In this document: piece after piece, positions 51,545 through 61,442 of the stretch
Position numbering within the stretch: the first letter of the stretch is position 1
Layout: the number at the start of each line of letters is the position of its first letter
Assembly (NCBI GenBank): GCA_946631895.1
Contig: CAMPAN010000003.1
Location: 2,556 to 66,555, forward strand
Reading direction: 5' to 3'
Source of the DNA: an uncultured Clostridia bacterium
Lineage (GTDB): Bacteria > Bacillota > Clostridia > Christensenellales > CAG-138
Length of the DNA stretch: 64,000 nucleotides
The notes under the pieces: generated by a model
Told to the model about the DNA's origin: nothing
Seen by the model: only the letters and a program-made list of their open reading frames with translations
The model's database searches: none
Program-made: the position numbers and the translations under genes

Positions 51545-53092
51545 TTATTTCGCGTAGTCGACCGTGCGGGTCTCGCGGATGACGTTGACCTTGATCTGAC
51601 CCGGATACTCGAGCTCGCTCTCGATGCGCTTTGCGATATCCTTCGCCATGATGACGGTCTCGGTGTCGCTGACGCGCTCGGGCTTGACGATGATGCGAAC
51701 CTCACGGCCCGCCTGGATCGCGTAGGAGTAATCGACGCCCTCGAACGAGTTTGCGATCTCCTCGAGCTTCTCAAGGCGCTTGATGTACGCTTCGAGCGTT
51801 TCACGCCGCGCGCCGGGTCTTGCCGCCGAGATCGCGTCCGCCGCCTGCACGAGCACCGCTTCGATCGAGTTGGGGTCGACGTCGCCGTGGTGCGCCATGA
51901 TGCAGTGGATGACCGCGTTGTTCTCGCGATACTTCTTCGCAAGGTCCGCGCCGATCTGCGCGTGACTGCCCTCGACCTCGTGGTCGATGGACTTGCCGAT
52001 GTCGTGCAGCAAACCTGCGCGCTTTGCGAGCGCGACGTTTGCGCCGATCTCCGCCGCCATGATGCCGGCGAGATGCGCGACCTCAATCGAGTGACGCAGG
52101 ACGTTCTGACCGTAGCTCGTGCGGTACTTCATTCTGCCGAGGTAACGGATCAGCTCATGATGCAGACCGTGTACGCCGACTTCGAGCACTGCGGCTTCGC
52201 CCGCCTCGCGGATGGTCTGATCGACCTCCTTGCGCGCCTTCTCGACCATTTCCTCGATGCGCGCGGGATGGATGCGTCCGTCCATGATCAGCTTTTCAAG
52301 GCTGATGCGCGCGATCTCTCTGCGCACCGGGTCGAATGCGGACAGGATGACCGCCTCCGGCGTGTCGTCGATGATCAGATCGACGCCGGTCGCCGTTTCG
52401 AGCGCGCGGATGTTGCGTCCCTCGCGGCCGATGATGCGGCCCTTCATTTCGTCATTGGGCAGCGGCACAACGGACACGGTCGCCTCTGCGACGTGGTCCG
52501 CGGCGCAGCGTTGGATCGCAAGAGAAACGATGTTGCGCGCACGCTTGTCGGCTTCTTCCTTGGTGCGCTGCTCGATCTCCCGGAGCATAACTGCCGCTTC
52601 GTGCTTCGCTTCCTGTTCGGCGCGGTCGAGCACCATGGTCTTTGCCTCGTCCAGGGTGATGCCGGAAATGCGCTCCAGCTCCTCCTCCTGCTTCTTATAC
52701 AGGGCGTTGATCTCGTCTTCCAATTTGTCGAGCTTCTTGGTGCGGTCGTTCAGCTGCTGTTCGCGGCTCTCGACGCCTTCCAGCTTCTTGTCCAGCGATT
52801 CCTCACGCTGGAACAGCCTGCGCTCGTTCTGCTTGATCTCGTTTCTGCGTTCCTTGATTTCCTTTTCCGCTTCGCTGCGGATCTTGTAAGCTTCGTCCTT
52901 TGCTTCCAGGACCTTTTCTTTCCGGATCTCTTCGGCCTTCTTCTGGGCTTCATCGTACAGACGCTTCACGGCATCCTCGGCCTTCTCGACCTTTGCCTCC
53001 GCGACGTTCTTCCGATAGAAGTAGCCGATCACAAACCCGATGACGCCGACGGCAACCGCCGCGCCGATCAATACGTAGTGCAACCAGTCCAC
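51545..53092 (-). CDS. rny: ribonuclease Y
   Basis: N-terminal TM helix ([19 protein letters not shown]), Lys/Glu-rich coiled coil, KH (..[15 protein letters not shown]..), HD (..[20 protein letters not shown]..). GTG start with GGAG RBS. Confidence 0.95.
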
Positions 53093-53269
53093 GATATTCT
53101 ACTCCGATCTATATCAATATAACCGAGCATACTGCCCGGCTATTCCACATAAATTGATTCCAGTTTTTCGAAAAAGTTCAGCGCGCAGAATATGCGCGGC
53201 AAAGCGTTCCGCAAATCTATGATCGATACTATGATGAACGCACTTGGCAGTGCAGGATTACTCGATAAT

Positions 53270-53298
53270 ATTGTAAACGCTTTTTCCTGCAAAGTCAA
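53270..53298 (-). promoter_or_regulatory. sigma-A-type promoter of rny (about 175-nt leader)
   Basis: The minus strand reads TTGACT, 17 nt, TACAAT. Confidence 0.6.
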
Positions 53299-53351
53299 GG
53301 ACCGATCTGCATAAAAAATGCATTTCTGCATCATATATCTTCCCGGAACCG

Positions 53352-53813
53352 TTATTCCCGCCGCAGCAGCTTTTTCAGCATCGGCAACAGTCCGAGCTTC
53401 TTTGCCGCTTTGACAAGCACCGTTCTGAGCTTCCTCCACAGCGCGCGCAGCGGATAGATCGCGTTCCAGAACCGCGCATAGAACCGATAGCCGCGCTCTG
53501 TAACGACATGCTGCTTTCCCTTGCGGTTGAATGTGGTCAGTACGCCGATCACATTTTCAAACGGAACACGCTCAACGGCATACGTGTTGTCCCCGCGGAT
53601 GCGGTAATACCCGTCCTCCACGCCGATCACGCGGTGCAGAACGTAGCTTTCGCCGCGTTTATACAGCGCAACGTCGTATTTTTGCAGGCATGAAAACGGG
53701 GCCTCGATGATCACCAGGTCCCTGTTCTGCCGCAGCATGGGTTCCATGCTCGTGCCCCTTGTCTTATAGACCAGCCTGCCGTCCTGTTCGAGCAGATCCT
53801 CGAAGCGCGTCAT
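53352..53813 (-). CDS. S24/S26-family serine peptidase, SipW/Sec11-like (S26B-like) catalytic core without N-terminal membrane anchor
   Basis: ..TRGTSMEPML.. (nucleophile Ser box), ..YVLHRVIG.. (His where bacterial SPase I has KRxIG), ..RIRGDNT.. (GDN box). No N-terminal hydrophobic segment; the C-terminal tail is basic and amphipathic. The start overlaps the PqqD-like stop (ATGA). Confidence 0.7.
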   Translation of the reverse strand: MTRFEDLLEQDGRLVYKTRGTSMEPMLRQNRDLVIIEAPFSCLQKYDVALYKRGESYVLHRVIGVEDGYYRIRGDNTYAVERVPFENVIGVLTTFNRKGKQHVVTERGYRFYARFWNAIYPLRALWRKLRTVLVKAAKKLGLLPMLKKLLRRE

Positions 53814-54070
53814 TCCTCGATCGCGCCGATGCCGCGAAGCGTTGCAAGGATCTCCTCCACGTCGGCGTCGATCGTTTCCCGCGGCGCGTCATACTGCAGG
53901 CACATCGCATCCACGATCTGGTCCTTCGTCGTGTCGTTCTTCAGGCAGTTTACGATGAACGCCGCCGTCTTGTTGCTGCGTACGATCCCGTTGAACGCTT
54001 CATGACCGAGCGGTACCAAAAACTGGGTGTCGTCGATGTCCTGTACGATAAAATCGGATTTCAGTTTCAT
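53810..54070 (-). CDS. stand-alone PqqD-family protein (RiPP recognition element-type peptide chaperone)
   Basis: MKLKSDFIVQDIDDTQFLVPLGHEAFNGIVRSNKTAAFIVNCLKNDTTKDQIVDAMCLQYDAPRETIDADVEEILATLRGIGAIEE shows the PqqD-like pattern at a size of 86 aa. GAGGAGAG RBS present. The start is at ATG 54070. Confidence 0.75.
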   Translation of the reverse strand: MKLKSDFIVQDIDDTQFLVPLGHEAFNGIVRSNKTAAFIVNCLKNDTTKDQIVDAMCLQYDAPRETIDADVEEILATLRGIGAIEE

Positions 54071-54080
54071 ATTTCTCTCC

Positions 54081-55406
54081 TCAGCAGATGAGGTCGTCCT
54101 CATCCGGATTTTCTGTTAAGTCCTGCTGGTTGCGAATGATCCGTCTCAATGCTTCCGCGGCGAGCATTTCATGGGATTCTCTGCAATGATAATCCACCCA
54201 GGGGCAGTTGGCGAAGCTCGTGCATTCGGGGAGCATCGGGCATTCCCGGCACATCGCCCGCGTCCGGTCGGTCCGGCAGTATTCCTCTCTCGCAGCCATG
54301 TCGATCGTCCCGCTGACGATGTTTCCGTAGCAGCTTTCCGCGGCGCAGTGCTCGCACGGATACAGACCGCCGTCCGGTGCGATCACCACGCTGCCGCTGT
54401 CCGCCATACAGCGATGGATCCGGAATTTCATGACCGGTTCCGTATATGGAACCGGTTTGAAACCGGCTTCGGCGATCAGCGGATTTGCGGCAAGAACCTT
54501 TTTCCAGAACGCGATATCGCCTTCGCCTGCGCGGACCGCCATCAGCGGACTGAAGTATACATGCACGCGATCCTTGTGATCGACCCATTGCTTCAGATCA
54601 TTCAAAAACTGCGGAATGCCGGACCAGTTGCCTTCGTCCACGTTGACGCGCAGCGCAACTGTGATACCCGCCTCCGAGAGCCTGCTGATATTCTGCATGA
54701 CAGCGTGATACGCATCGAGATCGCCGTAATACCGCTTTCTGGCGATATAGTCCGGCTCCGCGCCGTCCATGGAAACTTGTATATTCCTTGTATGCCATGG
54801 TCCCTGCATCTTTTCGAGGATCTCCGGCGTGATCAGACTGCCGTTTGTGACGACATTGGAGCGGTACGGAATGCCCGCTTCCCGGATCCCGTCGCTGATG
54901 CGGTCGATGATCTCCGGACACAGCAGCGGTTCGCCGCCGAACCAGTTCAGCTTTATGCCGTTCTTGTCACAGTTGTCCAGAATATACCGAAGGGTCGCTT
55001 CGACCGTTTCCGGCGTCATCTTCGACTGGGCGCGTCCTTCCTCATAGCAGTAGATGCAGCGCGCATTGCAATGGAGAGTAGGCAGAATGATAAACCCGCC
55101 AATCCTCTTTTTTTTGGAAAACAGCCGCATCATGGACGAGATCGACTCATAAAAGGCAACCTCATCCTTTCCCTCGGGAACGAGCATATAGGTTTCGATC
55201 AGGGAATCGAAGCCTTCTCCTGCTTTCACCGTTTCCGGCAATACTCCTTCGATGCACTGCTTTGTCAGCGTGCTGGTTACATACTGCTTGCCGTCGCATT
55301 CAAAAGAAAAAGCGAAACGGGATGGCACATATGTAACGCCGGTGCACGGTTTTGCTTTCGGGAGCACCTTGAATAAAAACGTATCAGGTGAAAAAATCTC
55401 TTTCAT
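54081..55406 (-). CDS. radical SAM enzyme with C-terminal SPASM domain and about 95-aa N-terminal extension (peptide-modifying maturase candidate)
   Basis: The CNARCIYC (CX3CX2C) cluster follows ..FIILPTLH. GGEPLL is present. SPASM-type Cys pattern: C-MADSGSVVIAPDG-GLYP-C-EHC..C..CRECPMLPECTSFANC..C. Confidence 0.85.
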   Translation of the reverse strand: MKEIFSPDTFLFKVLPKAKPCTGVTYVPSRFAFSFECDGKQYVTSTLTKQCIEGVLPETVKAGEGFDSLIETYMLVPEGKDEVAFYESISSMMRLFSKKKRIGGFIILPTLHCNARCIYCYEEGRAQSKMTPETVEATLRYILDNCDKNGIKLNWFGGEPLLCPEIIDRISDGIREAGIPYRSNVVTNGSLITPEILEKMQGPWHTRNIQVSMDGAEPDYIARKRYYGDLDAYHAVMQNISRLSEAGITVALRVNVDEGNWSGIPQFLNDLKQWVDHKDRVHVYFSPLMAVRAGEGDIAFWKKVLAANPLIAEAGFKPVPYTEPVMKFRIHRCMADSGSVVIAPDGGLYPCEHCAAESCYGNIVSGTIDMAAREEYCRTDRTRAMCRECPMLPECTSFANCPWVDYHCRESHEMLAAEALRRIIRNQQDLTENPDEDDLIC

Positions 55407-55420
55407 AATTCAAGATAAGC

Positions 55421-55451
55421 AAAAAGCGGTATACGAAATTACGCATACCGC
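55421..55451 (-). terminator. intrinsic terminator/attenuator between the precursor micro-ORFs and the radical SAM gene
   Basis: The minus strand reads GCGGTATGCG-taattt-CGTATACCGC (10 bp, one G-U) followed by TTTTTGCTT. It ends 14 nt before the rSAM ATG. Confidence 0.7.
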
Positions 55452-55550
55452 AAACGGTAATCAAGCGTATGTGTTCAATCAACCAAGCGACAGGCTTCTG
55501 TTATCGGCGAAAAGAACAAACCCATGCGTTTGACACAGGTTTTTCGGTTC

Positions 55551-55700
55551 TTATTCTTCGACGATCGTGCCGGGCTCGTAGCCCACGACGCAGAATCCGG
55601 GACCTTCGCTGTCGCAGGGATACGTCCCCTCACAGGAATATGTGAGCACGTGATCGTTGATTCTGATAACTTCCATTTTGGGCTTTTCGTAATTCTTCAT
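55551..55700 (-). CDS. precursor-peptide candidate A (49 aa; below ORF-track cut-off)
   Basis: My own translation gives MKNYEKPKMEVIRINDHVLTYSCEGTYPCDSEGPGFCVVGYEPGTIVEE*. GGAGGT lies 7 nt upstream of the ATG at 55700. An alternative ATG is at 55706. Confidence 0.7.
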   Translation of the reverse strand: MKNYEKPKMEVIRINDHVLTYSCEGTYPCDSEGPGFCVVGYEPGTIVEE

Positions 55701-55724
55701 AATCATTACCTCCGTTATAGAAAC

Positions 55725-55859
55725 TCAAAAATCGGGGAGTTCGATCGAGTAATCCCATGCAGTGCAGCAACCATCATGTCGTTCGGTCGGACAACTCGCC
55801 GTGATTACATCTTCCGGCAAAACAATAATCTCCATGTTCGGCTTTTCATATTGTTCCAC
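55725..55859 (-). CDS. precursor-peptide candidate B (44 aa)
   Basis: Translation from GTG gives (M)EQYEKPNMEIIVLPEDVITASCPTERHDGCCTAWDYSIELPDF*. GGAG lies 8 nt upstream of the GTG at 55859. The N-terminus aligns with candidate A. The longer track ORF (to 55919) would start inside the promoter. Confidence 0.65.
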   Translation of the reverse strand: MEQYEKPNMEIIVLPEDVITASCPTERHDGCCTAWDYSIELPDF

Positions 55860-55922
55860 GATCTTCACTCCATCATTTCCCACATATTGACCGCAAAAGG
55901 GGAAAATACTGCTTCTCAATAC

Positions 55923-55951
55923 AATATAGCAAATTTGTGCAATCTTGTCAA
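55923..55951 (-). promoter_or_regulatory. sigma-A-type promoter (extended -10) driving candidates B and A
   Basis: The minus strand reads TTGACA, 17 nt ending in TGC, TATATT. Confidence 0.65.
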
Positions 55952-56093
55952 TCCGTTTTCAGAATATTCACAAATAATTCCGGCAAAACATCTTCGTTCG
56001 GACAATCCGCACAATCTGCAGCGTTTCGATCAAAATCAATCGAAACAATATTGTATGATGCTTCAGTCTCTGTCCGTTCCTGTCGATCTGCTA

Positions 56094-56192
56094 TTAAAGA
56101 GTGGGATCGGTAAACTCTCCGCCGCTCGTAGCAATAATATCGTCCTGCGAAAGAACAAGAATCTTAATCGTCGGTTTGATATATGTTTCCAT
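56094..56192 (-). CDS. precursor-like micro-ORF C (32 aa, Cys-free, double stop)
   Basis: My own translation gives METYIKPTIKILVLSQDDIIATSGGEFTDPTL**. AGGGGG lies 9 nt upstream. The leader aligns with A and B. Confidence 0.5.
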   Translation of the reverse strand: METYIKPTIKILVLSQDDIIATSGGEFTDPTL

Positions 56193-56247
56193 GAACCTAA
56201 CCCCCTATATTGTGATGCTGTGATTGATTCATACCATTCCTTATTTT

Positions 56248-56276
56248 ACTTTAGCAAAGGATTATTCTTTTGTCAA
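56248..56276 (-). promoter_or_regulatory. sigma-A-type promoter (extended -10) upstream of micro-ORF C
   Basis: The minus strand reads TTGACA, 17 nt ending in TGC, TAAAGT. It shares the TTGACAA...TTTGCTA layout with the promoter at 55923-55951. Confidence 0.55.
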
Positions 56277-56361
56277 TTCCGAATCGCGTCTATTCATAAA
56301 AAAGTCATAATTGCAGTCGTTCTGACGTCCCCTGTTTACAGTTTCGACGTTTTTCCGCGCA

Positions 56362-59300
56362 TCAGAAATCAAACAGAGAAATCTGCTTGTTCTTCGGCAT
56401 ATTGCCGAACGCACCGCAGCTTTCCAGCATGGCGACGATCCCGGTGTTTGCGCCGGTCTCGTTCGCGAAATCTTCGATCGTCGGATAGACTGCGCCGGGT
56501 TTTCTGCGCTCGCAGATCGCGATCGCCTGACCGGCGCCGACGCCGGGGATCGCGTCGAACGGCGGACGCAGCGCGTTCCCCTCGATCAAAAACTTCGTCG
56601 CATCGGACTTGTAGATGTCGACGGGCAGCAGTTCGATGCCGCGTACGTTCATTTCATAAACGAGCTCAAGGATCGTCACAAGCTCCTTGTCCTTCTTTTT
56701 CTCGCTGTCGGTCTTCTGCGTGGAGGACGATTCCTTTTCGATCTCGTCGATCTGCCGTTTCACCGCCTCCGGACCGCCCGCCGCGCGCGTGATGTCGAAC
56801 GTGTCCGCGCGCACCGTAAAGTAGACCGCGTAAAACGCCAGCGGATAATGCACCTTATAGTACGCGATGCGGAACGAAGACATCGAGTATGCGACCGCGT
56901 GTCCGCGCGGGAACATGTACTTGATCTTCTTGCACGAATCGATGAACCATGCCGGGATCTTGCCGTCGATCATCGCCTGCTCCATCTCGTCGGTCAGTCC
57001 CTTGCCCTTTCGGACGCGCTCCATGATCTTGAACGACAGCGACGCCTCCATGCCGTGCGCGATCAGATAATTCATGATATCGTCACGCGTGCACAGAACC
57101 TCAGAGAGCTTTGCGATGCCGCCCATGACGAGCGGTTCGGCGTTATTGAGCCACACGTCCGTGCCGTGCGTCAGCCCCGCGATTCGGATCAGCTCCTCGA
57201 ACGTGGTCGGGCGCGTGTTCTCGAGCACCTGCCGCACAAACCCCGTGCCGAATTCCGGCACGCCGAGCGTGCCCAGGGAGCAGCCGATCTCGGTGAGGTC
57301 GATGTGCAGCGGCTCCACGGTCGAGAACAGCATGCGCGTGTCCGGATCGTCCAGGGGGATCTCGCGCGGGTTCAGCCCGGTCAGCGCTTCCAGCATGTGC
57401 AGCGCCGTCGGATCGTCGTGCCCGAGGATGTCGAGCTTGACGAGGCGGTCGTCCATCGCGTGGAAGTCGAAGTGCGTCGTGATCGTGTTCTTGTCGACCT
57501 TGTCCGCCGGATACTGGATCGGCGTGTAATCGTATACCTCGGTATATTCGTCGTGATCGCGCGGCACGATGACGATGCCGCCCGGGTGCTGTCCGGTCGT
57601 GACCTTGACGCCCTCGCAGCCTTTTTCGAGCCGCTGGACCTCCGCGGACGAGAACGTGCGTCCCGTCGCCTCTGCGAACGAATAGACGCATTCAAACGCC
57701 TTCCGTTCCGCAAGCCCGGAGATCGTGCCCGCGCGGAACGCGTGTCCCTTGCCGAACATCTCCTCCACGTACTTATGCGCGACCGGCTGATATTCGCCGG
57801 AGAAGTTCAGGTCGATATCCGGGACCTTGTCGCCCTTGAATCCGAGGAAGACCTCGAACGGGATCTCAAAGCCCTCCTTACGGAGCATGGTCCCGCAGAC
57901 GGGGCACGCGCGGTTCGGCATGTCCGCGCCAACGCTGTACTTTTCATGATCGATGTCGAAGTCGGAGAACCTGCAGTTCGGACAGACATAGTGCGGCGAC
58001 AGCGCGTTGACCTCCGTGATGCCCGCGAGCATCGCCACAAACGACGAGCCGACGGAGCCTCGGCTTCCGACAAGATACCCGTCGGAAAGCGACTTTTTCA
58101 CCAGCCGCTGCGCCATCAGATACAGGGACGCGTAGTGGTTGCCGATGATGGATTTCAGTTCCTTATCAAGCCTTGCCTGCACGATCGGCGGCAGCGGATC
58201 GCCGTAGATCTCGTGCGCGCGGTCGATCGCGGTGTTCTTGAGCTCGTCCTCCGCATTCTCGATCGTCGGAGAATGCGTCCCCTCCGGGAACGGTACAAGC
58301 TCGTCGCACAGGTCCGCGATCCGGTTCGGCACGTCGATGACGATCTCCTTCGCCTTCTTTTCGCCGAGATACGCAAACTCGTCGAGCATGTCCTGCGTCG
58401 TCTTGAAATACAGCGGCGCCTGCTGCTCCGCGTCCGCGAACCCGAGCTTGCTCATCAGGATCGCGCGGTAGATCGCGTCGGTCGGCTCCAGAAAATGTAC
58501 GTCGCCGGTCGCGGCAACGGGTTTGTGCATCCGTTCGCCGAGCGCAACGATCTTCCGGTTCAGATCCCGAAGTCCCTCATCGTTCTCCACCCTGCCCTCG
58601 CGCTTCAGAAACGCGTTGTTGCCGATCGGCTGGATCTCGAAATAGTCGTAGAACGAGGCGATCTTTTCGATCTGCTCCTGCGATTCCCCGTTCAGAACGG
58701 CGCGGAACAGCTCGCCCGCCTCGCACGCGGAGCCGACGATGAGATCGCTGCGGTAAAGCATCAGCAGCGATTTCGGGATCTGCGGACGCACGTGCAGATA
58801 GTCGAGGTGCGACCAGCTGATCAGCTTATAGAGGTCCTTCATGCCCTTCTGCGTGCGGGCAAGCAGGATGATGTGGTTCGTCTGCCGCTTCTCCTTCGCC
58901 GCGCGCTTACGGTACGCCTCGTGCGTGTCCGGCACGATCGGAATGCGGTCGATCCCGCGTTCCTTCAGCATGTCGATAAACCGCAGCAGGATCATCGCGC
59001 AGGTGTTTGCGTCGTCGTCCGCGCGGTGATGGCTGCCCATGTCGATGTCGAAATAGGCGGAAATGGTATCGAGCTTATGGTTTTCGAGCGCGTCGCGCAG
59101 CAGATAGCGCGACAGCATCAGCGTATCGGCGTACGGCATCGGGAACGTGATCCCGAACCGGTCGCCGTGATAGGTGATAAAGCCCGTGTCGAACTGCGCG
59201 TTGTGCGCGACGAGCGTGCTGCCCTCCGCAAACGCGCGGAAGCGTTCAAGCACCTCGCGCGTGCCCGGCGCGCCTTCGAGCATGGATTGCGTGATGCCGG

Positions 59301-60378
59301 TGAGTTCCGTGATATTCTTCGGAATGACGACGCCGTCGTCGATGAAGGACTGGAACCGTTCCGTGACCTTTCCGTCGTGCAGACGCACCGCGCCGATCTC
59401 GATGATCTCGCAGCTTTCCGCCTTGAGTCCGGTCGTTTCGATGTCGAAAACCGTGAAATCGCCGTCCGCGGGCTGCGATTCGCAGTCGGGAATCAGATAC
59501 CCCTCCACGCCGAAGATCGCCTTGACGCCGGTCGCCTTCGCCGCCTTTGCCGCCTCCGGGAACGCCTGGACCACGCCGTGATCGGTGATCGCAAGCGCCT
59601 TATGTCCCCAGCGCTTCGCCGTGCGGAACGCCTCGGTCAGGTTCGTGATGCCGTCCATCGTGGACATTCTGGAGTGCAGATGCAGCTCGACGCGCTTTTC
59701 CTCCGCGTCGTCCATGCGCAGCGCGCGCGGCAGAATGCCGACGGAATCGACGTAGACGCTGCGCTCTCCGGTCTTTTTGACGATCTTGCAGACGCCCTTG
59801 ATCCGAAGGTCCTTGCCGCCCTTTGCCGCGTCGTTGAGCCAGTGATCGAAGCGCGCCGCCTGCCATTCCTCGGGGAAGCTTGCGGTGCAGTAGACCGAAT
59901 CGGAAAGATCGGTCACGTTGAACTGCACGCGGCAGTTCGGCTTTTTGACGCGCATCGACCAGTCGTCGCGGATCTCCGAGGACACCAGCCTTCCCGTGAA
60001 CACGGCGGCGGTCTCCTCCTCCCCGCGCAGCTCATAGATCGGAAGTTCCTCCGCGCCTTCGGGAATCGGTTTGCCGAGGAGCACCCCGTTTTCGGGGATC
60101 GGCACATCGACCTCGTTCTTTTTCTGCGGCGCGGCAGGCTTGACGGCGACGCGTTCCGGCTCGACGTCGCGGTATTCGAACTGTACGGCATACATGGGCA
60201 GGATCGTCCGGATCGCGCCTTCCCAAGTGTCGCACGCATCCTTTGCAACCAGCTTTGCCGTGCGCTCGACCGTTATCGTCAGCGTCTGCGTATCGCGCGA
60301 AAGGCACACGTTTTTGATCGTGAGCCACTCGGTTCTGATATGCGCCGCGTCATATGCCGCCCTGAGTTCTTCCTTCAT
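56362..60378 (-). CDS. polC: DNA polymerase III alpha subunit, PolC type
   Basis: PHP (..HLHSRMSTMDGI..AITDHGVVQAF..) is interrupted by a DEDD exonuclease (..FTVFDIETTGL.., ..LVAHNAQFDTGFI..). Polymerase core follows. The start is at ATG 60378 (MKEELRAAYDA..). The R-rich upstream extension of the track ORF overlaps ispG and was rejected. Confidence 0.93.
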   Translation of the reverse strand: MKEELRAAYDAAHIRTEWLTIKNVCLSRDTQTLTITVERTAKLVAKDACDTWEGAIRTILPMYAVQFEYRDVEPERVAVKPAAPQKKNEVDVPIPENGVLLGKPIPEGAEELPIYELRGEEETAAVFTGRLVSSEIRDDWSMRVKKPNCRVQFNVTDLSDSVYCTASFPEEWQAARFDHWLNDAAKGGKDLRIKGVCKIVKKTGERSVYVDSVGILPRALRMDDAEEKRVELHLHSRMSTMDGITNLTEAFRTAKRWGHKALAITDHGVVQAFPEAAKAAKATGVKAIFGVEGYLIPDCESQPADGDFTVFDIETTGLKAESCEIIEIGAVRLHDGKVTERFQSFIDDGVVIPKNITELTGITQSMLEGAPGTREVLERFRAFAEGSTLVAHNAQFDTGFITYHGDRFGITFPMPYADTLMLSRYLLRDALENHKLDTISAYFDIDMGSHHRADDDANTCAMILLRFIDMLKERGIDRIPIVPDTHEAYRKRAAKEKRQTNHIILLARTQKGMKDLYKLISWSHLDYLHVRPQIPKSLLMLYRSDLIVGSACEAGELFRAVLNGESQEQIEKIASFYDYFEIQPIGNNAFLKREGRVENDEGLRDLNRKIVALGERMHKPVAATGDVHFLEPTDAIYRAILMSKLGFADAEQQAPLYFKTTQDMLDEFAYLGEKKAKEIVIDVPNRIADLCDELVPFPEGTHSPTIENAEDELKNTAIDRAHEIYGDPLPPIVQARLDKELKSIIGNHYASLYLMAQRLVKKSLSDGYLVGSRGSVGSSFVAMLAGITEVNALSPHYVCPNCRFSDFDIDHEKYSVGADMPNRACPVCGTMLRKEGFEIPFEVFLGFKGDKVPDIDLNFSGEYQPVAHKYVEEMFGKGHAFRAGTISGLAERKAFECVYSFAEATGRTFSSAEVQRLEKGCEGVKVTTGQHPGGIVIVPRDHDEYTEVYDYTPIQYPADKVDKNTITTHFDFHAMDDRLVKLDILGHDDPTALHMLEALTGLNPREIPLDDPDTRMLFSTVEPLHIDLTEIGCSLGTLGVPEFGTGFVRQVLENTRPTTFEELIRIAGLTHGTDVWLNNAEPLVMGGIAKLSEVLCTRDDIMNYLIAHGMEASLSFKIMERVRKGKGLTDEMEQAMIDGKIPAWFIDSCKKIKYMFPRGHAVAYSMSSFRIAYYKVHYPLAFYAVYFTVRADTFDITRAAGGPEAVKRQIDEIEKESSSTQKTDSEKKKDKELVTILELVYEMNVRGIELLPVDIYKSDATKFLIEGNALRPPFDAIPGVGAGQAIAICERRKPGAVYPTIEDFANETGANTGIVAMLESCGAFGNMPKNKQISLFDF

Positions 60379-60395
60379 GCTGCCCCTGTGTTTTC

Positions 60396-61442
60396 TTATG
60401 CGCCCAGGATCGCGTTTGCCTCGTCGACCAGACGCCGTAAAATCTCTTCGTAACCGCCGTGTCCGACGATCTCTCCCTTTTTGATCAGCACGCCGTTGCC
60501 GTCGCCGAACGCCACGCCGATATCCGCTTCCCGCGCTTCGCCTGGGCCGTTGACCGCGCATCCCATGACCGCGATCTTCAGATAGCCCTTGTTGTGCGCA
60601 ACGTGCTCGTTCACGTACGCCGCCGCCTTCTCGACGTCGCAGCGCGTCCGCCCGCAGGTCGGACAGGAAACGATCTCCACGTCGTCCTTCCTTAGCCCCA
60701 CGGCTCTCAGGATCGCAAGCGCGGTCTCCACCTCGCGGACCGGATCGCCGGTCAAAGAGACGCGCATCGTGTCGCCGATGCCCTGCAAAAGAAGCGCGCC
60801 GAGCCCCGCCGCGCTCTTGATGATCCCGGTTTCGATCGGGCCGGTCTCGGTGATGCCGATGTGCAGCGGATAGTCCATCCGCGCCTGCGCCATGCGGTAG
60901 CTGTGCACCGTTTCGGATACGGTCGTGCACTTTAAGGAGATCACGATGTCCGAAAACCCGCAGTCCTCCAGAAGCTTTGCGTGTCCCATCGCGCTGCGGC
61001 ACATCGCCTCCGCGGGGTTTTCGCGGTACAGCGGCAGAAACTGCTTTTCGATCGAGCCGCCGTTGATGCCGATGCGGATCGGCACGTGATGCGCTTTACA
61101 GCAGTCCGCAACCAGACGCACGCGCTCCGCGCTCCCGATATTGCCCGGGTTGATGCGCAGCTTGTCCACGCCGTTTTCGACGGCTTTGATCGCAAGCCGG
61201 TAATTGAAATGCACGTCGGCGACGAGCGGAATATGGATCCGCTCTCTGATCGTCCTGATCGCGTCCGCCGCGGCTTCGTCAAACACCGCGACGCGGATGA
61301 TCTCGCAGCCGGCTTTCTCAAGCCGCAGGATCTGCCCGACCGTTGCGTCCACGTCACGCGTGTCCGTATTGCACATGGACTGCACGGAGACAGGCGCACC
61401 GCCGCCGATCTGTATGTTTCCGGCCTTCACATAATCCGCCAT
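60396..61442 (-). CDS. ispG: 4-hydroxy-3-methylbut-2-en-1-yl diphosphate synthase (flavodoxin)
   Basis: ..IQIGGGAPVSVQSMCNTDTRDV.., ..SCPTCGR.., ..VMGCAVNGPGEA.. Confidence 0.93.
   Translation of the reverse strand: MADYVKAGNIQIGGGAPVSVQSMCNTDTRDVDATVGQILRLEKAGCEIIRVAVFDEAAADAIRTIRERIHIPLVADVHFNYRLAIKAVENGVDKLRINPGNIGSAERVRLVADCCKAHHVPIRIGINGGSIEKQFLPLYRENPAEAMCRSAMGHAKLLEDCGFSDIVISLKCTTVSETVHSYRMAQARMDYPLHIGITETGPIETGIIKSAAGLGALLLQGIGDTMRVSLTGDPVREVETALAILRAVGLRKDDVEIVSCPTCGRTRCDVEKAAAYVNEHVAHNKGYLKIAVMGCAVNGPGEAREADIGVAFGDGNGVLIKKGEIVGHGGYEEILRRLVDEANAILGA

Follow-up and report, generated by a model that had tools for sequence, protein, structure and literature searches.

A Radical SAM/SPASM Cassette with Two Unlike Cysteine-Containing Precursor Peptides in an Uncultured Clostridia Bacterium

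Introduction

What does a single modifying enzyme make of two precursor peptides which hardly resemble each other? This question is raised by a compact gene cassette on the minus strand of a 64,000 nucleotides long stretch of DNA (the window) from an uncultured Clostridia bacterium (GTDB lineage Christensenellales; CAG-138), which covers the positions 2,556 to 66,555 of contig CAMPAN010000003.1 in assembly GCA_946631895.1. The cassette is located between polC (56362-61002) and rny (51545-53092) and comprises, in this order, the micro-open reading frame (ORF) C, the genes of two small peptides, B and A, and the genes coding for a radical S-adenosylmethionine (rSAM)/SPASM enzyme, a PqqD-family protein and an S24/S26-like peptidase (Table 1). 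A first-pass annotation of the letters had proposed that A and B are precursors of RiPPs, i.e., of peptides which the ribosome makes and which are modified after translation, that one maturase may process two different cores behind a common leader, and that the sequence cannot discriminate among the possible chemistries. The comparison with related loci bears out the shared leader and the single maturase, assigns the two cores to two conserved classes and leans toward the formation of thioether rings at the cysteines.

Results

The Two Precursors Share a Conserved Leader

The minus-strand translation reproduces both cores exactly as they had been quoted, with three cysteines in each. For the comparison, 22 loci were fetched from species genomes, 80 from metagenomes and 12 from same-genus genomes. 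A hidden Markov model (HMM) built from the leaders finds A (42.8 bits) and B (46.0 bits). Across some 85 related loci it detects about 116 distinct precursors, which always adjoin homologous rSAM and PqqD genes. The leaders are of the YxxP type with the consensus x-Y-E-K-P-x-M-E-h-I-x-L-x-x-D-V-I-T-x-S, and compared with the leaders of the window their best identity has a median of 50%, whereas the cores are essentially unalignable across classes. Nearly all precursors lie immediately upstream of the rSAM gene, in some clades downstream of it. Near-identical orthologues of precursor A were found in the loci L001, L023, and L024/25. Among NCBIfam and Pfam the precursors have no curated match, and the three micro-ORFs of the window do not match anything there at E <= 1. 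A reading of the two genes as spurious ORFs was rejected because the leader is kept across more than 100 precursors and the synteny with the rSAM and PqqD genes is fixed. A and B are real RiPP precursors.

One rSAM/SPASM gene and one PqqD gene adjoin both precursors of the window, and an A-type together with a B-type precursor beside a single rSAM gene recurs in at least 14 distinct loci. The proposal of one maturase for two unlike cores therefore describes a conserved design and not an accident of the window. The gene order is B-A-rSAM in the clade of the window and A-B-rSAM in a second, well-supported clade of the rSAM tree. One locus (L024/L025) has five or six precursors in tandem, of which four are A-type variants, one is B-type and one is an extra; they lie ahead of a single rSAM that is 70% identical to that of the window.

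In a large protein collection, 703 homologues of the rSAM were found at E <= 1e-3, nearly all of them from metagenomes; many record titles of the relatives name rumen, goat or roe-deer gut metagenome-assembled genomes of Clostridia, and in most records the sample named is from a ruminant gut. The rSAM is present in 13 of 24 sampled same-genus genomes, with up to four copies per genome, and was found in none of the 16 genomes from other families of the same order. A distant rSAM subfamily (L007, L009, L010, and L012; 30-34% identical to the window enzyme), which partly occurs in the cultured Ruminococcus sp. YRD2003, has precursors with a related leader without the proline (Y-x-E-A-E-L-E-I-I-x-F-D-A-E-D-V-I-T-T-S) and very short cores with two cysteines, e.g., CTGTDDCLGE. 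L007 and L010 retain the PqqD protein and the S26-like peptidase.

Cysteine Is the Near-Constant Residue of the Cores

The composition of the cores was determined from the first 102 distinct cores. Cysteine makes up 11.0% of the core residues and 0.39% of the leader residues, and with at least one copy in 100 of the 102 cores it is the only near-universal core residue. The emphasis which the first-pass annotation had put on cysteine is thus well placed, but not its emphasis on exactly three: the number ranges from 0 to 9, with no cysteine in 2 cores, one in 27, two in 28, three in 21, and four to nine in 24. Phenylalanine, tryptophan and tyrosine had been called frequent, which the counts do not support. 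Together they account for 3 of 27 residues in core A, 3 of 22 in core B and 6.3% of the family cores, and 20 of the 102 cores lack them altogether.

It had also been pointed out that an aspartate or glutamate follows every cysteine within six residues. This is true in both cores, but 44% of the composition-preserving shuffles of either core reproduce it (p = 0.44), and this window-level rule was dropped as evidence; aspartate and glutamate make up 22-23% of each window core. One of the quoted spacings was a misreading, since Cys1-Pro-Thr-Glu4 of core B is C-x2-E and not C-x3-E.

A sharper signal appears across the family, when the residues at fixed offsets from each cysteine are counted against within-core shuffles. 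Aspartate or glutamate was observed 81 times at Cys+3, with 46.6 expected (z = +5.7). Among 83 cores with less than 50% mutual identity there were 66 against 35.2 (z = 6.0; 0 of 3000 shuffles as high), a de-duplication which lessens the phylogenetic non-independence of these related sequences and does not remove it. No enrichment of these residues was found at Cys+1, +2, +4, +5 or +6 (z = 0.5-0.7 at Cys+4). Furthermore, threonine or serine is enriched at Cys+2 (z = +5.2) and Cys+4 (z = +4.2) and proline at Cys+1 (z = +3.8), and both proline and threonine/serine are depleted at Cys+3. By class, the z-score for aspartate or glutamate at Cys+3 is 3.6 in A-type cores, 1.7 in B-type cores and 4.4 in the other classes.

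Two Core Classes with Different Conserved Positions

The classes were assigned by hand-made patterns, with the A-type cores anchored by hand. In the A-type pattern, C-[D/P]-[T/S]-[E/K/Q]-x-P-x-x-C lies in the center and h-h-G-D(D) follows at the C-terminus. Counted this way, 30 of the 31 A-type cores have the central cysteine (Cys7 in the window), about 20 have the one eight residues after it (Cys15) and about 12 have an upstream one (Cys1), which mostly forms a C-x-x-D unit of its own. In the window and its closest relatives, the G-D is swapped for G-Y-E-P-G-T-I-V-E-E.

B-type cores contain one to three cysteines and end in the tail [I/V/A]-[E/V/M]-[L/T]-P-x-[L/I/F]-(P), which reads I-E-L-P-D-F in the window. 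Seven (+/-1) residues before the isoleucine lies a conserved cysteine, often as Cys-Cys; in short form, the class reads C-x6-I-E-L-P-x-L-P. In core B this is Cys10, together with Cys9, before Ile17.

The two window cores had been said to share no obvious similarity. This is only partly right: the family motif C-[P/D]-[T/S]-E occurs once in each of them, as Cys7-Asp-Ser-Glu10 in A and as Cys1-Pro-Thr-Glu4 in B, and each belongs to a conserved class. The only C-X3-D of the window cores is Cys10...Asp14 in B. Other clades have further classes, whose cores terminate with ...G-H-G-x-x-G-N-x-x-A-C, terminate with DDW[L/F]G or WGGEGG, or are long and Cys-rich.

The Radical SAM/SPASM Enzyme

The enzyme has the general features of an rSAM/SPASM RiPP maturase, with a CxxxCxxC motif at C113/C117/C120 and SPASM cysteines for two auxiliary clusters in an eight-cysteine region (C333, C351, C354, C386, C389, C395, C401, and C408). 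In an alignment of 22 homologues, C333-x12-G346-x4-C351 and C386-x2-C389-x5-C395-x5-C401-x6-C408 are invariant. The Pfam scores are 53.5 bits for PF04055 and 21.1 bits for PF13186 (cut-off 21.5).

The best NCBIfam matches are TIGR04463 (116 bits, cut-off 525), Clo7bot (104, cut-off 600) and CefB (96, cut-off 600), followed by PapB (95, cut-off 340) and the geopeptide maturase (93, cut-off 400). All of these are maturases of Cys-rich peptides, and the rSAMs of the relatives behave alike. The cyclophane-forming AmcB (45 bits, cut-off 425), DynA (67, cut-off 450) and the sulfatase maturase family (46, cut-off 349) score lower.

When sequence profiles are compared, CteB (5WGG, E 4.5e-19) is the nearest solved structure, ahead of TigE (8VPO) and anSME. 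The AlphaFold2 model (predicted local distance difference test score 83.2) gives the same first neighbor in Foldseek, CteB (5WHY/5WGG, E 4e-14, about 450 aligned columns, TM-score about 0.6), and then TigE, anSME, SuiB and SkfB. The N-terminal domain of about 100 residues was considered as a candidate for the sole RiPP recognition element: it is mostly beta in the model and was aligned to the N-terminal domain of CteB, but a discrete PqqD protein is always present as well.

At its C-terminus (54081-54110) the enzyme carries an acidic tail, NPDEDDLIC, with a nearly invariant terminal cysteine (family consensus DEDDxVC). This tail resembles a core peptide. For TigE, the tail at the C-terminus is known to sit in the groove of the RiPP recognition element (RRE) (PMC10878394), and by analogy the tail found here might serve as a self-mimic or as a cluster ligand.

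Proposed Cross-Links and Alternative Explanations

The interpretation which we find on balance somewhat probable from the sequence comparison is thioether chemistry at cysteine, with roughly two-thirds of this weight on links to side chains (ranthipeptide type) and one-third on links to alpha-carbons (sactipeptide type). The single rSAM/SPASM enzyme would remove a hydrogen atom from a core residue and bond the carbon concerned to the sulfur of a cysteine, so that thioether macrocycles form, each with a mass loss of 2 Da. The preference for aspartate/glutamate at Cys+3, threonine/serine at Cys+2 and proline/aspartate at Cys+1 suggests short in-line rings of the ranthipeptide type between Cys(i) and the acid at i+3. 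The thioethers formed by PapB are Cys-Asp/Glu links, and in its C-Xn-D/E motif n = 0-6 is tolerated (PMC9413430). Core A would then carry Cys7-Glu10 as the conserved ring, with Cys1 and Cys15 as accessory positions. In core B, a Cys1-Glu4 ring is predicted, together with a second link from the conserved Cys10 (or Cys9) at its fixed distance from the I-E-L-P-D-F tail; the partner of Cys10 may be Asp14, as C-X3-D, or the tail itself.

Several points weigh against this interpretation. The rSAM reaches no NCBIfam cut-off and has no characterized relative, and among its structural neighbors are enzymes with non-thioether chemistry, i.e., TigE (cyclopropylglycine), anSME (formylglycine) and SuiB (Lys-Trp link). 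The residue at Cys+3 of A-type cores is sometimes glutamine, lysine or arginine, and most B-type cores are devoid of C-X2-D/E, which means that the two classes do not follow a single rule. Leader-bearing ORFs without cysteine occur three times (ORF C of the window, locus L097, and contig C71 of genome G000). No exporter or immunity gene was found in the cassette, neither in the window nor in L115-L118. What the sequences show is that the genes are real and belong to one family, along with the conserved positions, the motif statistics and the modular divergence; thioether chemistry, ring placement, leader cleavage site and any biological role are inferred.

The deviating residues at Cys+3 and the B-type cores without a nearby acid would be tolerable if the same enzyme linked the cysteine sulfur to alpha-carbons, as in sactipeptides, where acceptors need not be acidic; the preference for aspartate/glutamate at Cys+3 would then reflect conformation or solubility instead of the acceptor. 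An rSAM/SPASM enzyme with an RRE is the classic architecture of a sactisynthase, and SkfB as well as CteB-like folds are among the structural neighbors. The sharp enrichment at +3 only is nevertheless what would be expected of a side-chain acceptor, the 25 best NCBIfam matches include none of the known sactisynthase models, and the cysteines are spread along the cores, whereas sactipeptide hairpins have an N-terminal cysteine half facing C-terminal acceptors. Sactipeptide-type linkage is therefore regarded as unlikely here. The structural proximity of TigE and SuiB, together with the three cysteine-free ORFs and cores rich in cysteine, aspartate, glutamate and glycine, as in metal-binding peptides, could also point to an rSAM chemistry that does not involve cysteine at all (C-C or C-N cross-linking, epimerization or cyclopropanation), which would leave the cysteines for disulfides or metal binding. 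This is considered still less probable, as an internal disulfide is impossible in the 27 single-cysteine cores, cysteine is the one residue kept nearly throughout, and both cyclopropylglycine formation and aromatic cross-linking are disfavored in the family.

The latter two were examined as family-wide candidates and rejected, which means that, contrary to the first-pass annotation, comparison does discriminate among chemistries to this extent. The cyclopropylglycine synthases TvgB and TigE have a strictly conserved GYW motif, whose tyrosine ligates auxiliary cluster I (PMC10878394). This enzyme type is disfavored because the motif is absent from all 22 family rSAMs; the family cores also have no repeated Val/Ile motif. 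Three-residue cyclophanes (triceptides) and other aromatic cross-links would call for an aromatic residue conserved within a repeated three-residue motif; they are disfavored because aromatic residues are not conserved in the cores and AmcB, like DynA, stays far below its cut-off. Finally, the cysteine might be modified without being cross-linked, e.g., to formylglycine as by anSME, which is a good structural match (TM-score about 0.6) and acts on cysteine in short peptide motifs, or by another single-residue change. The sulfatase-type motif is C-x-P-x-R, and the cores do not contain it; the logic of leader, RRE and peptidase is that of RiPP macrocyclases, and the score of the sulfatase maturase family is far from its cut-off. 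We regard this as very improbable.

Proposed Leader Recognition and Removal

The PqqD protein matches PF05402 (54 bits) and NF033530, the lasso PqqD chaperone (E 3.8e-9), and its only sequence match in the PDB is the lasso RRE TbiB1 (5V1U, E 6.5e-4). From these matches it is assigned to the RREs of the lasso/LPP (linear polyphosphorylated peptide) type. LPP clusters were shown to have a discrete RRE that binds the YxxPxVL...FET leader and hands it over to the SipW-like, i.e., signal peptidase I (SpI)-like, peptidase LppS (Popov et al., 2026; PMC13381572). In the family described here, the PqqD protein would likewise bind the YxxPx[M/L/V/I] motif of the leader.

The peptidase gene directly follows the PqqD gene in 36 of the loci which extend far enough. 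Its product matches TIGR02228 (E 4.8e-7) and PF00717 (E 0.013), both under their cut-offs. The leaders end with [I/V/L/T]-x-S directly before the first core cysteine. Signal peptidases follow a -3/-1 rule, and the element fits the -3/-1 preference of the adjacent SpI-like protein, which is predicted to remove the leader next to it. The predicted bond has an uncertainty of about 2 residues; by analogy with LPP, it could instead lie two residues earlier.

Diversification of the Locus

The PqqD protein and the peptidase are more conserved than the rSAM in all 36 loci with the three genes, with median identities to the window of 78% for PqqD, 73% for the peptidase and 58% for the rSAM. In sister species, the loci L033/L108 and L038/L110 occupy the same site between polC and rny. 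On the nucleotide level, L033 and the window share 95-96% in polC, 97-100% in rny and 88-91% in the PqqD and peptidase genes, compared with 63-78% in the rSAM gene (58% on the amino-acid level) and about 60% with indels in the precursors. Compared with L033, L038, L108 and L110, the stretch 52400-56950 of the window is a hypervariable island of cassette-like character. Furthermore, the region 56041-56340, which carries ORF C and a promoter-like site, is missing from the syntenic L033 and L038; it is either an insertion in the window or a deletion in these two loci.

In the rSAM tree, the window enzyme groups with L025 and not with the syntenic loci. The core class tracks the phylogeny of the rSAM, with 26 label changes compared to 47.8 in shuffles (0 of 200 as low). 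The pattern at the polC-rny site fits either a replacement of the cassette or a very strong diversifying selection on cores and maturase, with the leader-handling module kept. The A/B pairing, a maturase which evolves faster than the accessory proteins, and the cassette-like replacement together suggest diversifying selection; cores and maturase would co-diversify at a rapid pace, with leader, RRE and peptidase remaining conserved.

Genes and Signals of the Cassette

The features of the cassette are listed in Table 1. In the preferred interpretation, A and B are co-transcribed. For A, translation most likely starts at the second ATG, which has GGAGGT 8 nt ahead of it. The GTG start codon of B is preceded by GGAG at 8 nt, and its relatives show ATG or GTG at the same codon. 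Four terminator-like sites were found, with 0.8 expected from shuffles. A promoter before the two precursor genes and hairpins of the terminator type after them also speak for real genes.

Table 1. Features of the rSAM/SPASM cassette in the window.
Feature	Coordinates	Strand	Description and basis
Precursor A gene	55551..55700	-	49 aa, stop included in coordinates; translation and leader HMM
Leader of A, MKNYEKPKMEVIRINDHVLTYS	55635-55700	-	translation
Core A, CEGTYPCDSEGPGFCVVGYEPGTIVEE	55554-55634	-	three Cys; translation
Precursor B gene	55725..55859	-	44 aa, GTG start, stop included; translation and leader HMM
Leader of B, VEQYEKPNMEIIVLPEDVITAS	55794-55859	-	translation
Core B, CPTERHDGCCTAWDYSIELPDF	55728-55793	-	three Cys; translation
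Micro-ORF C, third leader-bearing ORF, leader METYIKPTIKILVLSQDDIIATS and core GGEFTDPTL	56094..56192	-	leader HMM (34.9 bits); core without Cys
Strong promoter-like site upstream of B	55923..55951	-	TTGACA-17-TATATT, TG extension, 11/12 matches
Two terminator-like hairpins between precursor A and rSAM gene	55518-55542 and 55426-55451	-	
Radical SAM/SPASM maturase	54081..55406	-	441 aa; PF04055, Cys motifs, fold
Discrete PqqD-family RRE	53810..54103	-	PF05402, NF033530
Soluble S24/S26 (archaeal-type SpI-like) protein, presumed leader peptidase	53352..53813	-	TIGR02228, PF00717

The cassette is limited to precursors, rSAM, PqqD protein and peptidase, and the same compact set is found in L115-L118. 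Relatives elsewhere have the same cassette of four to six genes in unrelated contexts, never with a dedicated exporter. In some relatives (L117, 7089-7733; L118, 1515-2264), a gene with a weak Pfam match to ScmC of the SynChlorMet cassette was observed just upstream of the precursor/rSAM/PqqD/peptidase set. In the same genome as the window, a fourth leader-like ORF (locus L119; G000 contig C71:5586-5723) consists of the leader MNRRKPAMMKEQYEKALMEVIRFERGADVIITS and the core PNDDTPLPETGE, which contains no cysteine. It directly follows a surface-protein-like ORF of 1142 aa and lies about 280 bases before the contig end.

Discussion

Thioether-type RiPPs of rSAM/SPASM enzymes are a known kind of system, but this family is uncurated; a large family has thus been missed by the curated models. 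With respect to the searched literature, the combination of an rSAM with a lasso-type RRE and a leader peptidase that resembles SpI appears to be new, as do the conserved A/B duo, the C-X2-D/E signature and the cassette-like diversification. The locus would join two modules which have not been reported together, a thioether-type rSAM/SPASM enzyme and the processing set of YxxP leader, RRE and SpI-like peptidase, which became known in 2026 from phosphorylated peptides (PMC13381572). The macrocycle scaffolds made by the related enzymes would amount to a natural library.

A more far-reaching idea, which taken as a whole is doubtful and put forward only tentatively, is that A and B together make up a hypervariable system of two peptides, which would act either as a "pherotype" signal specific to the strain or species or as a two-component antagonistic peptide. 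One rSAM would then form rings of two types: A-type cores would receive C-X2-Asp/Glu rings, and the C-x6-IELPxLP cores of the B-type would receive a link from cysteine to the tail. The block of precursors and rSAM would be swapped as an allelic cassette at one fixed chromosomal site, while leader, RRE and SpI-like peptidase are kept. If this were true, it would constitute a new RiPP class uniting radical-SAM cross-linking with a leader-processing module of the LPP type.

Comparison with Known Systems

The family was not found in the searched literature on rSAM RiPPs and ranthipeptides of the rumen, on FlmE, OhkG, CefB and Clo7bot, and on rSAM enzymes combined with signal peptidase and RRE. The "ranthipeptides" of the Hungate1000 collection are SCIFF (TIGR03973) clusters and do not belong to it. 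The best-scoring curated models, TIGR04463, Clo7bot and CefB, are uncharacterized and are likewise paired with short Cys-rich peptides; however, the scores obtained here are far under their cut-offs of 525-600, and the precursors have no curated match.

Two different Cys-bearing precursors side by side, matured by radical SAM chemistry, are also known from the two-peptide sactibiotic thuricin CD. That system has two rSAM enzymes and an exporter, whereas the two peptides of the window are served by a single rSAM, without a linked exporter.

CteB, the maturase of CteA (thermocellin, a ranthipeptide of the SCIFF type), forms thioethers and is the closest solved structure by both profile and fold. 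The two enzymes share only about 15% sequence identity, the maturase model for SCIFF (TIGR03974) gives 56 bits against a cut-off of 425, and the precursors found here have another leader and match no SCIFF model.

The freyrasin system PapA/PapB of Paenibacillus polymyxa shares the rSAM/SPASM enzyme, a leader-bearing peptide with several cysteines and aspartate or glutamate at a short fixed spacing; its rings are small and in-line, and PapB is among the best NCBIfam matches. With 95 bits for the window enzyme and 92-102 bits for its relatives, the scores are far below the NF047865 cut-off of 340, and the window rSAM is therefore not a member of the PapB family. Freyrasin has C-X3-D repeats, whereas the family described here prefers C-X2-D/E, which is one residue shorter, in hypervariable and non-repetitive cores, and its B-type cores do not follow the motif. 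In addition, a discrete PqqD protein and a signal-peptidase-like protease are part of the cluster here.

With respect to leader handling, the closest counterpart is the LPP system (LppA/LppB/LppS), with which the family shares the YxxP leader, the discrete RRE and the SpI-like leader peptidase. In both, the leader starts with YxxPx followed by a hydrophobic residue, and a serine is conserved 19 residues after the tyrosine. The description of LPP makes no mention of radical SAM partners (PMC13381572). Unlike LPP clusters, the cassette of the window contains no HprK-like kinase, NTP transferase or MsbA-type exporter, and an rSAM/SPASM protein serves as the modifying enzyme instead.

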